Shown here: piece by piece, positions 10,457-16,106 of the stretch | Layout: each line of letters begins with the position of its first letter | Position numbering within the stretch: the stretch's first letter is position 1 | NCBI GenBank assembly: GCA_963707955.1 | Contig: OY970176.1 | Location: forward strand, 2,176,001-2,240,000 | Length of the DNA stretch: 64,000 nt | Source of the DNA: Candidatus Bathyarchaeota archaeon | GTDB lineage: Archaea; Thermoproteota; Bathyarchaeia; Bathyarchaeales; Bathycorpusculaceae | Reading direction: 5' to 3' | Position numbers and translations under genes: made by a program | The notes under the pieces: model-generated | What the model saw: only the letters and a program-made list of their open reading frames with translations | Database searches by the model: none | What the model was told of the DNA's origin: nothing

Positions 10457-11932
10457 ATGGCCGGTAGGTTTCTCTCGTTATTCAAGCCTATTGCAAGAGT
10501 CTTGCCAGAAGTGAAACTTCCAGAGCGCAGGGTTCGGTTCAACGAAAAAATCTTCTGGACTGGGCTCGTCCTGATAATCTTCCTAGTCATGTCAGAGGTT
10601 CCTCTCTATGGAATTCAGGCGAGCGCGCTGGGGCAGCTTGCAGCTCTGAGGATCATTTTTGCCTCGAGTCGCGGCACCCTCATGGAGCTTGGAATAGGCC
10701 CTATAGTGACTGCAGGGTTGATACTGCAGCTCCTCGCTGGCTCAAACATGATTGAATGCGACATGGGCAACGCTGAAGATAGGAGTCTGTTTACGTCAGC
10801 AAGCAAAGCGTTCACCATTGCTCTCACAGGAGTTCAAGCAGCAGCTTACATAGTCGGCGGCATGTACGGCATCTTACCTGGAACCACGGCTGTAATCGTC
10901 TTCTTGCAACTAATCTCGGCGGGAGTTGTCGTGCTATTAATGGATGAACTTGTCCAGAAAGGTTGGGGGTTCGGCAGCGGAGTAAGCCTGTTCATCATGG
11001 CCGGCGTTGCCAAGACAATTTTCTGGCAGTCCTTCTCACCTGCACCTGCCGTCGGTCAGTCGGGAGCCTACGGATTATTCGTCCAAATAGGTGCATCCCT
11101 GTCTTCAGGTCAATCGCTATCGAACCTTTGGCTTAGACAATACGTGGACACCACGGGCGCGCTAGTCTCATCAAACCCGACGCTGCTCGGCTTCGCGGTC
11201 ACGATCATCGCTTTCTTGGTGATAATCTACATGGAAGGCGTAAGAATCGAACTGCCTTTATCCTATGCTGGCTACAAGGGTTACCGTAGCAGATACCCGA
11301 TAAAGCTCTTGTACGTGTCGAACCTGCCAGTTATTTTCGCTTCCGCCTTGTTCGCTAACGTTTACTTCTTCTCGCAACTCTTCTGGAGCATGAGCGGTCA
11401 GCCAGCTGCCGGCCAAAACCCATGGCTTGACATATTAGCACAGTTCAAGGTCGTGCAACCTGCCACCGGGTCAACTGCGGCGCCAACGATAACCCCCATA
11501 GGAGGCATCGTCTACTACGTGCTGGCACCGAGCAGCTGGACAAGCGTTATGCAAGCCCCGTGGAAGGCCCTTGGTTACCTTGGAATTCTCATCGTCTTTT
11601 GCGTCATCTTCTCGCTCACCTGGCTTGAGGTCGGCGGTATAGGGCCGTCTAACGTTGCACAACAGCTCATGGATGCTGGCATGCAGATTCCAGGATACAG
11701 ACGATCAGGAAGAGCCATAGAATCGATCCTCAAGCGTTACATTCCAGCCGTCACTGTTGTCGGCGGAATACTGGTCGGACTTCTCGCAGGGCTCTCAGAC
11801 TTCTTCGGAGTCTTCGGTTCAGGGATCGGCATTCTACTTTCCGTAGGAATAATCTACCAGTACTACGAAACGCTGATGCAGGAAAGAGCAGCTGAAATGT
11901 ATCCGGCGTTCAGGCGCATATTTGGAGAATAG
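10457..11932 (+). CDS. secY: Preprotein translocase SecY
   Basis: LMELGIGPIVTAG, GWGFGSGVSLFI, YPIKLLYVSNLPVI, GMQIPGYR. Confidence 0.98.
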   Translation: MAGRFLSLFKPIARVLPEVKLPERRVRFNEKIFWTGLVLIIFLVMSEVPLYGIQASALGQLAALRIIFASSRGTLMELGIGPIVTAGLILQLLAGSNMIECDMGNAEDRSLFTSASKAFTIALTGVQAAAYIVGGMYGILPGTTAVIVFLQLISAGVVVLLMDELVQKGWGFGSGVSLFIMAGVAKTIFWQSFSPAPAVGQSGAYGLFVQIGASLSSGQSLSNLWLRQYVDTTGALVSSNPTLLGFAVTIIAFLVIIYMEGVRIELPLSYAGYKGYRSRYPIKLLYVSNLPVIFASALFANVYFFSQLFWSMSGQPAAGQNPWLDILAQFKVVQPATGSTAAPTITPIGGIVYYVLAPSSWTSVMQAPWKALGYLGILIVFCVIFSLTWLEVGGIGPSNVAQQLMDAGMQIPGYRRSGRAIESILKRYIPAVTVVGGILVGLLAGLSDFFGVFGSGIGILLSVGIIYQYYETLMQERAAEMYPAFRRIFGE

Positions 11933-11935
11933 CCC

Positions 11936-12523
11936 ATGAACAAGACGATAATCGTGACTGGAATACCTGGAACTGGAAAGACCACGATTTGCAGTTTCAT
12001 CGAGAAGCTTGCAGAAGAAGCTGGCGTTGAAGTCAGCGTGATAAACTATGGAACAGTTATGATGGAGATCCTTCACAAATCTGGGAGACCCATGGAAAGA
12101 GACGCGATGAGGATGGACAGCGTAGAAACTCAACGCAAACTGCAGAGACAAGTCGCCGAAGCAGTCGCAAAGAGAACAAGAACGTTTAACGGCCTAACAG
12201 TCATCGACACACACACGTCGATAAAGACTCCTGAAGGATATTTTCCCGGTCTCTCATGCAACAACCTGCAGCTATTGAAGCCTGAAATGCTCGTGCTCGT
12301 TGAAGTCCACCCAGGTGAAATATCTTCAAGAAGAATGAAGGATGCTGGCAGAAAAAGAGACACTTCATTAGAAGACTCTGTTAAGGAAGAGCTCACTTTT
12401 TCGCGGGCAATTGCTGGTGCATGTGCCGTTCTCATGAGTGCCCCCGTAAAAATAGTCGTCAACGCTGAGGGAAAACCTGAAGAAGCCGCGAAAGACATAC
12501 TCAGAGCTATGGGAGTTGTGTAG
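11936..12523 (+). CDS. adkA: Archaeal adenylate kinase
   Basis: GIPGTGKTT P-loop, IDTH..GYFPGL; follows secY. Confidence 0.93.
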   Translation: MNKTIIVTGIPGTGKTTICSFIEKLAEEAGVEVSVINYGTVMMEILHKSGRPMERDAMRMDSVETQRKLQRQVAEAVAKRTRTFNGLTVIDTHTSIKTPEGYFPGLSCNNLQLLKPEMLVLVEVHPGEISSRRMKDAGRKRDTSLEDSVKEELTFSRAIAGACAVLMSAPVKIVVNAEGKPEEAAKDILRAMGVV

Positions 12524-12525
12524 AT

Positions 12526-12732
12526 ATGATGCAAGTGTTGTTGGCGGTACTTGTTCCGACATGTCTAAATATGACCGAAGGATACAGCATTACAAACGGA
12601 GCCTTTTCTATTACATCTTCGACATCAACTTCAAATTACTATTGCTATTTTGAGACTTGCGTATGGAATACTACAGGATATCCGGCAATAGGACAAATAT
12701 ACAACGTGGCGATATCATACTATGCATATTAA
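12526..12732 (+). CDS. Small probably chimeric ORF (likely native DUF106 start joined to AT-rich foreign sequence)
   Basis: Starts 2 nt after the adk stop, where DUF106 normally begins; becomes AT-rich after about 12560; overlaps the next ATG. Confidence 0.45.
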   Translation: MMQVLLAVLVPTCLNMTEGYSITNGAFSITSSTSTSNYYCYFETCVWNTTGYPAIGQIYNVAISYYAY

Positions 12733-13870
12733 TAAAGGAATATCAACTATCCTAATAATCTCAATTCTTGTCTTATCTTTCCTTATATATCTTGTTTCCG
12801 TATCACAAGTTAAGGCTGCTAGTGTTAATGAGGGAATATTACAAGACACAGCAGTAAACTATGGAAATCCAGCAACAAATTATGGGGATTCAGATCCATC
12901 TACTGGAGCTCTGGGGAACTTCACAATGACAGCCAATGGTACAGTATCTTTTTCTAGACTTCTATTGGATCTAAACTTTTCTGAGATAAGCCCATCATAT
13001 ACATTAGGTAATGTGACTTTGAACGTATATCAATGTTCAGATGATCCAACCACTTCTCCAGATTACTTTGACATAACTGCATATGATTTACTATCTTCAT
13101 TCAATGAAGGTACTGTTGCATGGAATACTATGCCTTCTTATAATGCAAGTCTTTATTCAAACACGATTACAATTAATGATTCCACGTCTGGATGGCAGAC
13201 TCTAAATATAACTAGTATATGCTCAGCTGTACGGACAGCAAATCCATTTAAGACTTCACAATTCACTGATATATACATAGTCTTGATTCCGTTTAACAGT
13301 AATGCTTCAGTTAGCTATATGGACAGTTTCTTGATTTATGGTCAAGACATTTCCAATTCATCACTAGCTCCATACGTTACTATAACATATACCATTCAGC
13401 CCATATTGAAGGAGATTCCTTATTCGGCACTTTTAATACTCGGTTTAGCTTCATTGATATCGTTATTGACCACCGCTGTGAACCGTTTGCTGACAAACCC
13501 AGAGCAGACAAAATCTGTGCGAAGAGAGGTTACTGAATGGAGCAAAGAACTGCGCCAAGCGCAACGCGACAAAGACAAAAAAGCCATCGAAAAACTTATG
13601 AAAAAGCAAAGTTACATGATGCAGATTCAAACCAAGATGATGTGGCAATCGATGAAAGTGACACTGCTGTTTATTGTTCCCCTGCTCCTCATGTGGCAAG
13701 TTCTGGGTGGGTTCTACGGCGGGCGTGCCGTAGCCTATCTTCCAGGAATCGGCGCTAATCTTCCATTACCGATTTTCAGCTCTTCTCTCATCTGGTTTTA
13801 TTTGCTGTGTTCACTCCTTTTCGGTACAACTTTTTCACACGTCCTTGGTATAATTGAGGTGAGCGAGTAG
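12722..13870 (+). CDS. Signal peptide + DNRLRE/CBM96-like domain fused to DUF106 (EMC3/TMCO1, Oxa1 superfamily) insertase
   Basis: C-terminal ~160 aa: TM, coiled coil (EWSKELRQAQRDKDKKAIEKL), TMs, WFYLLCS; N-terminal QDT.V..NP.TNYG, R.LL, NEGTVAWN, GWQTLNIT, PYVTITY. Confidence 0.85.
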   Translation: MHINKGISTILIISILVLSFLIYLVSVSQVKAASVNEGILQDTAVNYGNPATNYGDSDPSTGALGNFTMTANGTVSFSRLLLDLNFSEISPSYTLGNVTLNVYQCSDDPTTSPDYFDITAYDLLSSFNEGTVAWNTMPSYNASLYSNTITINDSTSGWQTLNITSICSAVRTANPFKTSQFTDIYIVLIPFNSNASVSYMDSFLIYGQDISNSSLAPYVTITYTIQPILKEIPYSALLILGLASLISLLTTAVNRLLTNPEQTKSVRREVTEWSKELRQAQRDKDKKAIEKLMKKQSYMMQIQTKMMWQSMKVTLLFIVPLLLMWQVLGGFYGGRAVAYLPGIGANLPLPIFSSSLIWFYLLCSLLFGTTFSHVLGIIEVSE

Positions 13871-13871
13871 C

Positions 13872-14139
13872 ATGCCGAGACCTAGCGAGCGCACGCGGAG
13901 CAGAAAACGCACAACCAAACCCCTACCAGGCGGAAGAACTGGCACACAGTTCAAGTATGAGATCGCTGCTCAGTCAACCTGCAGCCGCTGCGGCCGGCAG
14001 CTAGCAGGCGTTTCAAACAGCTCTCCGAAAGCCCGGAAACTAAACCGAAGCGGAAGGAGAGTTCAGCGTGTCCACGGAGGACAGTCTCTGCCACGACTGC
14101 ATCAAGACTGCTTTGAGACAGGCTGCCAGGGCACTTTAA
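13872..14139 (+). CDS. rpl34e: 50S ribosomal protein eL34 (one extra T at 14085; probably intact in vivo)
   Basis: PGGR..CSRCGRQLAGV..RVHGGQ; removing T14085 gives LCHDCIKTALRQAARAL* and restores the second CxxC. Confidence 0.9.
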
Positions 14140-14162
14140 GCTCGAGTTTTTGAGGTAAGCAG

Positions 14163-14762
14163 ATGGCTCGGTCAAAGAAGACTGAGAGAGGGCACTCGCA
14201 GCATGTGACGATATGCGTAGGCGGAATGGCAGGAAGTGGAAAAAGCACACTGGCAAAGAAAATCGCCGAGAAATATGGGCTCAAGTATTTCTCCGGTGGA
14301 GCTGCGTTGATGGCGCTGGCTGTTGAAGAGGGGTATAGGCCTATTGAACATGGCTGGTGGGAAAGTGAAGAGGGGATGCGGTTTCTGGAAAAGAGAGGCA
14401 GAGATCCTTGGTTCGACCAGGCTGTTGACAAGAAACTCTTGCGAATAGCACAGCAGGGTAACGTGGTCCTAGACAGTTGGACCATGCCGTGGCTTCTCAA
14501 GAAGGGCTTCAAGATTTGGCTTGAGGCGTCAGCAGAAAAGAGGGCTGAAAGAGTAGCTGAAAGGGACAAGATAGGCTTCAAAGAGGCTCTTGAAGCGGTG
14601 AAACGTAAAGAGAGGCAGACAAAGATCATCTACAAGAAAATGTATGGCTTCAGTTTGGGAGACGATTATGCTCCTTTCAATTTCATCCTAGACACGGACA
14701 TTCTGAACGAGGAAGAAGTGTTTCAGATTTTGTGCATGGTATTAGAGAGTCTGGTTCTGTGA
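14163..14762 (+). CDS. cmk: Cytidylate kinase
   Basis: GMAGSGKST, VVLDS, KIWLEAS..RAERVAERD; follows L34e. Confidence 0.92.
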   Translation: MARSKKTERGHSQHVTICVGGMAGSGKSTLAKKIAEKYGLKYFSGGAALMALAVEEGYRPIEHGWWESEEGMRFLEKRGRDPWFDQAVDKKLLRIAQQGNVVLDSWTMPWLLKKGFKIWLEASAEKRAERVAERDKIGFKEALEAVKRKERQTKIIYKKMYGFSLGDDYAPFNFILDTDILNEEEVFQILCMVLESLVL

Positions 14763-15050: not shown

Positions 15051-16106
15051 TCAGAGGGATGCAAGCGGCGTTTTCTTCAGGAACAGTCTCGCGTTCTTCC
15101 ATTGTTCTTGCGCGATCTGAAGGTTGGCGAGAACGCTTCCCTGGAGAGAATAGAAAATGTAGCACATGTACGTGCATTGGGTACACTCGCTGTATTTCCT
15201 GCGCAGGGCCTTGAGTTGTGGAGTGTTCCACATTCTGGGAAGATCAAATATCGTGGTTGTCGGGTCGTGTACGTGACATCCAGCCACCCTGCCAACATGG
15301 TCGATGACGAAGAAGTTCTGAAGTGCACGGCACTTCCATGGTCTTTCACCGGTCAAGTAGAGGTTCTTTATTGCCTTCAACAACTTCGTGGTCATAATGA
15401 TGTTGCTGTTTTTCTTCCTCATCGCTATCAACGAGTCACACGTTTTGACCATTGCGTTCCTGTCAACGATCGTGAACTCATCATTCTTCTTCCCTATTGT
15501 GAAAAGGTGGCTTTGTTCGTCGGCTGAGTCGTATGAGTAAAGACTGTACCACACTGGAATGTCCCTATTCGTGAAGTATCTCGTGAGGTCCAAGATTTCG
15601 TAGAGGTTAAACTGCGATATCGTCGGAGCTACACCGACTGAGATGCCGTTTTTGTGAAGTTCTTCAACAGCCTTCATCGCAGCGCTCCACGCGCCTCTAA
15701 CACCCCTTATGTAGTCGTTCTTCTCAGGGTTCAAGCTGTCAATCGAGATTGCAACAAAGTCTGCATGGCGCAGGGCTTCAATTTTCTCAACGGCCATACT
15801 GCCGTTGTCGTAGACCGTTGTTATGAAGGATTCCGAAGCGTGTCTTATGATTTTGCCTATGTCGTCTCTCAGGAGAGGGTTACCACCAGAGAGCACAAGG
15901 TCTACTACGCCAAGTTCCCGAAGGATGTTCAAGCCTTTCTTCACTTGTTCTGTTGACAGCTCGCGGGGGTCTTGCTGCTGCCAGACGGTGCATCCTCTGC
16001 AACGGAAGTTACATTTTCTGGTGAGCATCCATTGAGCATGGCGGGGTCTGTTAGGCGTAAAGCTTCGAATTGCAATGCTGCGAGCTTTCTTAAGAGACAT
16101 GACCAA
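15051..16106 (-). CDS. Radical SAM protein with SPASM/twitch-like C-terminus
   Basis: CNFRCRGC motif, SGGNPLLR, ISIDS, C-terminal C..GRVAGC..CTQCTYMC. Confidence 0.9.
   Translation of the reverse strand: MVMSLKKARSIAIRSFTPNRPRHAQWMLTRKCNFRCRGCTVWQQQDPRELSTEQVKKGLNILRELGVVDLVLSGGNPLLRDDIGKIIRHASESFITTVYDNGSMAVEKIEALRHADFVAISIDSLNPEKNDYIRGVRGAWSAAMKAVEELHKNGISVGVAPTISQFNLYEILDLTRYFTNRDIPVWYSLYSYDSADEQSHLFTIGKKNDEFTIVDRNAMVKTCDSLIAMRKKNSNIIMTTKLLKAIKNLYLTGERPWKCRALQNFFVIDHVGRVAGCHVHDPTTTIFDLPRMWNTPQLKALRRKYSECTQCTYMCYIFYSLQGSVLANLQIAQEQWKNARLFLKKTPLASL

Follow-up and report, generated by a model that had tools for sequence, protein, structure and literature searches.

Archaeal DUF106 proteins, also known as Ylp1, are regarded as the simplest insertases of the Oxa1 family, with a bare three-helix core. 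The topology of the family is described as N-out/C-in (PMC5868721), and direct proof of insertion by the member Mj0480 is said to be lacking (PMC6098224). In Gram-negative YidC, according to the description in PMC4252904, the first transmembrane (TM) helix, TM1, acts as a signal sequence, and a non-essential beta-supersandwich domain, P1, resembles a sugar-binding enzyme and contacts SecF. DNRLRE domains are reported as having been first described in archaeal surface proteins, mostly without known function (PMC2447325, PMC9971899), and the carbohydrate-binding family CBM96 is given as about 30% identical to the DNRLRE family (PMC9971899). The two kinds of protein meet in one gene of a Bathyarchaeia genome. 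The locus lies in a 64,000-nucleotide stretch of contig OY970176.1 (assembly GCA_963707955.1), called the window here, whose positions are used throughout. In it, the DUF106 gene of the secY operon is preceded, in the same reading frame, by a signal peptide and a DNRLRE/CBM96 beta jelly-roll that are encoded by an inserted AT-rich fragment. It is likely that a foreign fragment was fused to the insertase gene, kept by selection and spread by recombination, and it may have produced a surface module anchored by an insertase.

The features of the fusion are as follows.

12526-12732, + strand: upstream open reading frame (ORF) of 68 codons, made of 9 native DUF106 codons and 59 foreign codons
12553-13396, strand not applicable: inserted foreign fragment, 844 bp, 35.2% GC, delimited by alignment with the insert-free genomes G001 and G010
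12722-13870, + strand: fusion gene, 382 amino acids (aa), predicted signal peptide, DNRLRE/CBM96 domain and DUF106 (Ylp1) core (ORF list, Pfam, NCBIfam)
12722-12820, + strand: predicted signal peptide or signal anchor, aa 1-33 (hydropathy, model helix)
12821-13390, + strand: DNRLRE/CBM96 beta jelly-roll, aa 34-223, one complete domain (NF033679, PF24517, structure model)
13397-13870, + strand: native DUF106/Ylp1 body with TM1, coiled coil, TM2 and TM3 (PF01956, model helices)

The C-terminal part of the fusion protein is an ordinary DUF106/Ylp1 core and the N-terminal part an ordinary DNRLRE/CBM96 domain; the combination is new to us. Residues 237-377 match PF01956 (EMC3_TMCO1/DUF106) at 47.6 bits (cut-off 27.1) over profile positions 17-167 of 169. 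The model of the core has helices at 234-257, 260-283 with 286-331, and 354-374, with predicted local distance difference test scores (pLDDT) of 70-96, and hydropathy peaks lie at residues 228-257, 306-334 and 347-378; a three-TM core with a helical hairpin between TM1 and TM2 is predicted in the fusion protein. With its above-cut-off Pfam match, its three hydrophobic helices, the helical hairpin after TM1 and the same operon position, the segment 227-382 is an ordinary relative of Ylp1/Mj0480. The difference lies in front of it: described members start a few residues before TM1, whereas here a signal peptide and a 190-residue predicted extracytoplasmic domain come first. No description of a DUF106/Ylp1 protein with such an N-terminal domain was found in the accessible parts of the literature on DUF106, Ylp1 and archaeal YidC. 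The whole genome has 1 PF01956 match and 0 matches to PF02096, the 60KD_IMP family, and the fusion gene is its only recognisable Oxa1-family gene.

The limits of the insert follow from alignment of the window's own genome, G000, and of the metagenome-assembled genome (MAG) of a second species, G007, with the insert-free relatives G001 and G010. In insert-free relatives DUF106 starts a few bases after the adk stop and runs straight into the conserved residues that precede TM1, while in G000 and G007 foreign DNA begins after the ninth native DUF106 codon. The native start is the ATG at 12526/12529, which agrees with the left junction proposed in the first-pass annotation, and from 13397 onwards the body is native again and in frame with the 12722 ORF, as had likewise been proposed for the right junction. 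Since 844 does not divide by 3, the native ATG and the DUF106 body are in different frames. The ATG at 12722, inside the insert, is the only start from which signal peptide, domain and insertase core are read through as 382 aa.

The fragment differs sharply in composition from its surroundings. The host genome is a closed single contig of 2,346,764 bp with a mean GC of 47.9%; the insert has 35.2%, with flanks at 45-51%, and falls within the lowest 0.064% of all 840-bp windows of the genome (z = -3.7; mean 47.9%, standard deviation 3.4%). An AT-rich stretch at about 12560-13390 had been noted at the outset, and its low GC is real, but the 23-32% then quoted for sampled lines was too low, the 60-nucleotide (nt) lines of the insert measuring 27-45% (mean 35.1%).

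The same annotation had seen in the insert the tail of one foreign gene and the head of the next. The head is well defined: a predicted signal peptide is followed by a DNRLRE domain that is complete, with its last strand ending at the junction. The tail is less so. Its evidence is a stop-free foreign run of 59 codons (chance about 0.018 at the composition of the insert) and an operon-like overlap of 11 nt between the upstream ORF, which stops at 12732, and the new ATG at 12722; the upstream-ORF peptide belongs to no Pfam or NCBIfam family, has no Atlas match and no homologue was recognised. In G007 this upstream ORF is also open, with 47 codons from a second, conserved ATG, an in-frame deletion of 60 nt and an overlap of 14 nt. 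The upstream ORF keeps the native DUF106 start, in front of which a purine-rich stretch is seen by eye. A candidate A/T-rich box, some 23 nt ahead of 12722, has hardly changed in G007.

The insert is bounded by neither inverted nor direct terminal repeats, nor by a clear target-site duplication. The only repeat is the 5-nt TTCCG, present at the left end of the insert and, in G007, across the right junction, which we read as probable microhomology rather than as a target duplication. In the ORF list, the 844 bp hold no integrase, transposase or other recombinase, only the upstream-ORF tail and the head with signal peptide and domain, in keeping with what had first been observed. The insert is single-copy in the G000 genome.

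The composition changes abruptly at both junctions, as it would in an assembly chimera, in which case the insert would lie in this gene in no real genome. Against this, in each of three further samples of the study (X2, X3 and X4) both the left and the right junction are bridged by Logan contigs, with no alternative joint, and X1, the probable source sample, spans the whole stretch within the reach of the comparison, which extended to window position 14000. The same junctions are found in the G007 MAG, in the metagenome contig L023 from JGI and in the JGI proteins P0003 and P0004, each diverged by 10-20%, and the frame is continuous across the junction in 5/5 fused sequences. The chimeric joint allowed for in the first-pass annotation is, on these data, extremely improbable.

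The fusion is rare. Among 41 related genomes it is complete in two, G000 and G007 (83% aa identity), while in 36 the same operon holds a plain DUF106 of about 160-180 aa; in G033 there is a fragment, at the end of a contig, and G003 and G017 have weak domain-like matches in other genes. In 5.8 billion protein clusters there are four fused proteins, namely the window's own, P0002 (the G007 protein), P0003 and P0004, and one other long form, P0005. Among the 80 metagenome loci that were kept, L023 has the same fusion, cut by the contig end, and only L098, the locus of P0005, has in addition more than 100 open codons upstream, the next longest having 76. The search of DUF106 homologues for N-terminal fusions thus yielded G007, P0003, P0004 and L023, and P0005 as a separate case. 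A profile of 18 diverse DUF106 sequences, applied to proteins of at least 385 aa, found only P0004, a result of little weight. In a survey of 401 genomes of the phylum, among the 150 of 278 matches listed, only G000 (392) and G384 (312) have open frames of more than 260 codons. G384 was rejected as an N-terminal fusion, the extra length being an internal loop insertion, and the long frame of G360 was rejected as merely an open upstream frame. The G384 gene (L115 1165-2088; G384:C1:229164-230087) is a 307-aa DUF106 homologue adjoining adk; its N-terminus is of low complexity, and about 100 residues, to judge by appearance mostly helical, are inserted between the second and third hydrophobic segments. 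In the same genus, DUF106 of G009 (G009:C13:140242-140746, L015) is split between two frames, into overlapping matches whose open frames are 69 and 127 aa long, which points to a frameshift or an assembly error.

The captured domain is recognised by two profile libraries. Residues 41-169 match NCBIfam NF033679 (DNRLRE_dom) at 45.8 bits (cut-off 34) and residues 41-168 match PF24517 (CBM96) at 30.4 bits (cut-off 26). The domain is complete, since in a domain-only alignment with 30 relatives it spans the conserved blocks from first to last, and its final conserved strand, PYVTITY, stops two residues short of the junction between insert and body. A model of the domain alone has a mean pLDDT of 84 and a predicted TM-score (pTM) of 0.79, with a helix at 5-26 and strands over 34-222. 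The best structural match in the PDB (Foldseek) is 8wab, a chondroitin-sulfate-binding module (E 5e-8, TM-score 0.72 on target), followed by 7vbo, an alginate-binding CBM96 (E 3e-5), and then by prodomains of the TGF-beta family. The two CBM96 modules are thus the closest in predicted fold (TM-score 0.66-0.72 on target), but they belong to soluble multi-domain bacterial polysaccharide lyases and are only 14-16% identical, and ligand binding by the captured domain is putative. Profiles, model and PDB matches together bear out the architecture first suggested, a signal peptide and a lectin-like beta domain followed by DUF106.

The N-terminal hydropathy peak covers aa 2-35. A small-x-small site (VKA then AS), conserved in type in 4/4 full fused proteins, is a predicted cleavage site; the ratio of nonsynonymous to synonymous substitution (dN/dS) of the signal peptide is about 1.1, yet its hydrophobicity and this site are retained. 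The domain has 9 N-x-S/T sequons against 4.7 +/- 1.8 in shuffled sequences (1.75% of shuffles reach 9), five of them conserved in 4/4 full fused proteins, and the core has none. In the models, about 11 residues separate the last strand of the domain from TM1. Since the family is N-out/C-in (PMC5868721), an exported N-terminal domain is topologically compatible with the core, as had been argued from the beginning.

Comparison of the fused genes shows the captured domain to be under purifying selection. Its dN/dS is 0.35-0.41 between G000 and G007 and 0.27-0.29 against L023 (0.41, 0.29 and 0.27 for the three fused pairs), and the excess of synonymous changes over the neutral expectation gives binomial p values of 0.006, 4e-5 and 1e-5, the three pairs not being independent. 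The DUF106 body has 0.33-0.34 against G007. All indels among the fused DNA sequences are multiples of 3, namely 12 nt in the G007 fusion ORF and the 60 nt in its upstream ORF; P0004 has 6 extra residues. These data also bear on whether the insertase might be made from an internal start, the upstream part being untranslated or translated separately. Possible starts exist, an in-frame ATG at residue 200 (window 13319) in 4/4 full fused proteins and a TTG at residue 229 in G000, but no ribosome-binding-like motif is seen by eye in the 20 nt before either, and such a split would leave unexplained a frame that is continuous in all five sequences, indels only in threes and purifying selection up to the junction. 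Split expression is given a slim chance.

The history of the fusion can be followed in the flanking genes, whose order, secY-(adk)-DUF106-rpl34e-cmk, is common to the window and its relatives. The further features of the locus are as follows.

10457-11932, + strand: secY, first gene of the conserved operon (ORF list)
11936-12523, + strand: adk, archaeal-type adenylate kinase (Pfam AAA_17), its last 37 nt or so within the insert-linked haplotype
12487-13453: recombining cassette, approximate extent from the limits of diagnostic sites, made of the insert with about 66 nt to its left and about 57 nt to its right
13872-14153, + strand: rpl34e (Pfam Ribosomal_L34e)
14163-14762, + strand: cmk, cytidylate kinase (Pfam Cytidylate_kin2), used as flank marker

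In a protein tree of the DUF106 body with 40 rows, the five fused rows are scattered in a well-supported group of 13 that includes eight unfused ones, and well-supported branches force at least two changes of fusion state. A DNA tree of the DUF106 body, rpl34e and cmk (15 rows, 1415 columns) places L023 as sister to the unfused L029 (100/100) and groups G000 with the unfused G010, L025 and L026 (100/99), with G007 apart. Three changes are needed for its three fused rows, and forced monophyly of these is rejected (difference in log-likelihood 259.5; approximately unbiased test, p 5.6e-65). The synonymous divergence (dS) of cmk is 0.13 between G000 and the unfused G001, 0.29 between G000 and the fused G007, and 0.68 and 0.85 between L023 and these two fused genomes.

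The insert itself is more uniform. Its divergence among the three fused sequences is only 0.17-0.24, despite the distant cmk of L023. Synonymous differences per site are 0.201 in the insert and 0.414 in the flanks for G000-L023 (Fisher p 9.6e-6), 0.204 and 0.435 for G007-L023 (p 3.5e-6), and 0.149 and 0.251 for G000-G007 (p 0.015). In the flank set a frameshift in rpl34e of G000 affects 17 codons; the G007-L023 pair is unaffected by it and gives the same answer. This frameshift is due to one extra T near 14085 (window 14080-14090) relative to G007, G001 and G010, beyond the reach of the Logan comparison. Its effect is a shift of the last 17 codons and the loss of the second Cys-x-x-Cys pair; in the frame of the relatives a TAA would come about 30 nt earlier. 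The extra T may be an error in the assembly consensus, or this ribosomal protein gene may truly be frameshifted.

The edges of the conserved segment extend beyond the insert. Window by window, identity to L023 is about 90% within the insert and drops to about 82-85% immediately beyond the right junction. Between about 12487 and the adk stop, G000 and G007 have a haplotype in common with the unfused L030, from which G001, G010 and L025-L028 differ at more than 10 sites, and the first 57 nt or so to the right of the junction have sites exclusive or nearly exclusive to the three fused sequences. The fused rows scatter on flank trees, the insert is about half as diverged at synonymous sites as the flanks, and the flank haplotypes travel with it. 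Together these comparisons show that homologous recombination, acting in the conserved operon sequence on either side, has carried the cassette between diverged lineages of the genus, of which there are at least three. Most simply, there was a single original insertion, perhaps into an L029/L030-like background, and a cassette of about 970 bp then passed into other lineages. The sharing and recombination of the cassette, the out-of-frame native ATG and an independent second fusion, described below, all go beyond the first-pass annotation.

The origin of the fragment is best judged from its relatives. All six of the nearest ones scanned are CBM96/disaggregatase-repeat proteins, and in several of them the domain follows a signal peptide directly; this fits the surface-protein origin that had been put forward as one of two options. 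The other option was a virus, or in a wider form a mobile element that inserted itself and left a fragment of its own surface protein. The foreign composition would suit such an element, and identical junctions in several lineages are possible also for a site-specific one. However, tblastn against 50,697 phage and archaeal-virus records gave no match, a pattern scan of viral_contigs gave nothing, and the same scan of genome_contigs gave only the G007 record; the insert has neither integrase, transposase nor terminal repeats, the travelling flank haplotypes fit homologous recombination rather than site-specific insertion, and the nearest relatives are cellular. A viral or element origin is very improbable, and the original suggestion of a virus was not upheld.

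Within G000 a protein search at E 0.01 found no relative of the captured domain, and tblastn at E 10 gave noise only. The genus does have native small DNRLRE proteins, present in G000, G007 and G009, each with a signal peptide, a DNRLRE domain and a C-terminal hydrophobic anchor with a basic tail. The one in G000 lies outside the window, and its row is as follows.

G000:C1:1660645-1661205, - strand: native DNRLRE protein L108, with orthologues L107 (G007) and L106 (G009)

These proteins (L106-L108) have a GC of 38-42% and a C-terminal segment preceded by P-E-F. No NCBIfam sorting-signal model matched their anchors at E 0.1, and a likeness of the anchor to PEF-CTERM is presumed. They resemble the fusion in domain family, in the N-terminal signal peptide and in having a membrane-spanning segment directly after the domain, but they differ in sequence (about 16-21% identity to the captured domain) and in that the anchor is a single C-terminal helix with a basic tail and not an insertase. 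They were rejected as donors on account of this distance. By their predicted architecture, they show that a DNRLRE domain is of a type normally anchored at the membrane surface in these organisms. Apart from the insert, the lowest-GC islands of G000 (36-37% GC; nine regions of C1 outside the window, for example 576101-578540 and 1357601-1361640) mostly contain ORFs with N-terminal hydrophobic leaders, which suggests an AT-rich, probably exchangeable pool of genes for secreted proteins. Since these islands also encode leader-bearing proteins, the fragment looks like a piece of a variable surface-protein pool.

The layout of the fusion protein, with a helix at 5-26, an outer beta domain at 34-222 and a core at 234-374 in the models, recalls Gram-negative YidC, and a YidC-like architecture had been proposed from the sequence. 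The resemblance holds for the order of the parts, and P1 too is described as a non-essential add-on with a sugar-binding-like fold (PMC4252904). It does not extend further. P1 is a supersandwich of residues 59-320, whereas the domain here is a non-homologous CBM96 jelly-roll of about 190 aa; YidC has a five-TM core, against three TM here; the N-terminal helix here is followed by a cleavage-type site; and the add-on here is recent and confined to a few lineages. The fusion protein has no YidC periplasmic family among its Pfam matches up to E = 1 and no PF02096 (60KD_IMP), and no YidC P1 chain is among the Foldseek matches listed. The sequence comparisons make the resemblance an analogy and not a homology.

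An accessory role like that of P1, in which the domain would work in insertion by contacting, for example, Sec components, the S-layer or substrates outside, would be consistent with the order of the parts, with the reported binding of P1 to SecF (PMC4252904), with the very short linker to TM1 and with the recurrence of capture in P0005. Such a role is improbable, considering that, besides the missing homology, a plain DUF106 suffices in 36/41 related genomes, that P1 itself is described as non-essential in Escherichia coli (PMC4252904) and that the same type of domain occurs in the genus as a free-standing anchored surface protein.

P0005 (L098 2632-3513) comes from a peat-type metagenome contig and has a different signal peptide and beta-rich domain fused to a DUF106 that is 57% identical to that of the window. 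Like the window's protein, it has a predicted signal peptide and a beta domain rich in sequons, here about 110 residues long, and the join to DUF106 falls at the same place, just in front of the conserved residues preceding TM1. The differences are that its domain is unrelated, that no deviant composition marks it and that secY is followed by the fusion with no adk in between. The N-terminal domain has no Pfam match, and an assignment as bacterial Ig-like was rejected, the Atlas leads scoring only about 0.8, at chance level. A spacer of about 180 nt lies between the secY stop and the likely fusion start in L098. By its unrelated domain, P0005 is taken as an independent second fusion in a related lineage.

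Two captures at one site bear on whether the domain does anything at all. It could be a tolerated passenger, an accident that survived at the N-out end, functionless and merely kept translatable, exportable and foldable. Such an accident would leave just the junction microhomology that is seen, and in the sole Oxa1-family copy a fused N-terminus must stay harmless; the dN/dS of the domain (0.27-0.41) is looser than that of adk and cmk (0.10-0.25), and the distribution is narrow, with four fused database proteins, the window's own included, and one contig. The presence of the cassette in at least three diverged backgrounds, where it is younger at synonymous sites than its surroundings, is easier to understand if it is advantageous, and the second fusion of a different domain at the same site, the conserved sequons and the exact domain boundary point the same way. 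A mere passenger is accordingly an unlikely but sizeable alternative.

The favoured functional reading, for which the odds appear slightly less than even, is that of a surface, probably glycan-binding, module anchored by the insertase. The sequences show that an 844-bp fragment was joined at codon 9-10 of DUF106, probably by illegitimate recombination at a microhomology of a few bases, and brought with it the end of one open frame and the start of a secreted surface-protein gene, with its ATG, signal peptide and one DNRLRE/CBM96 domain. Ribosomes may reach 12722 by termination and reinitiation from the upstream ORF, or through a promoter carried on the fragment. The signal peptide would take the N-terminus across the membrane, to the side on which it already lies in this N-out/C-in family, and a probably N-glycosylated jelly-roll of glycan-binding type would then stand on the outer face, some 11 residues from TM1 of a presumably still functional insertase. 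The domain would thus be a surface module with the insertase as its membrane anchor, comparable to the C-terminally anchored DNRLRE proteins of the genus.

Several points weigh against this account of fusion, selection, spread and anchoring. The monophyly test on the DNA tree was chosen after the protein tree had been seen. Of the fused sequences, L023 lies on a short metagenome contig, and for P0003 and P0004 only the protein is known. The low synonymous divergence of the insert could in part be an effect of composition, AT-rich sites being slower under AT-biased mutation, an effect that we judge unable to explain a two-fold difference. A dN/dS below 1 would also be expected if the domain need only stay foldable and exportable, sparing an indispensable insertase. 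Translation of the fusion as one chain is deduced from conservation only, cleavage, N-glycosylation and glycan binding of the domain are predictions, and in a full-length model built on a mixed alignment residues 62-225 have a pLDDT below 50 with no confident placement of the domain. Finally, no donor was found: HMMER against 1.84 billion representatives gave 50 matches at E <=1e-3, the best at 3.7e-13, with identities of 23-36%.

Just downstream of the operon, on the - strand at window 15051-16106, lies a 351-aa ORF (ORF list) with a Cys-rich N-terminal motif of the kind typical of radical-SAM enzymes, to which it is putatively assigned.

The locus shows the acquisition step of such an architecture, with a donor fragment still recognisable by composition, a visible solution to the reading frame, an exact domain boundary and unfused sisters for comparison. 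It bears in this way on the origin and purpose of the P1 domain of bacterial YidC, which are still open questions. An insertion allele of an apparently indispensable core gene crosses species boundaries, and this bears on how freely Bathyarchaeia recombine. More speculatively, and with a low probability, a cassette of about 1 kb may be sweeping the genus by upgrading a minimal insertase, coupling insertion to the glycosylated envelope or to Sec partners in a convergent re-invention of the TM1-P1-core layout. If so, the N-out end of Oxa1-family insertases would, given the second capture, be a preferred docking point for extracytoplasmic modules. Should the domain bind glycan or alter insertion, the fused and unfused natural alleles of the genus would be a ready-made experiment.

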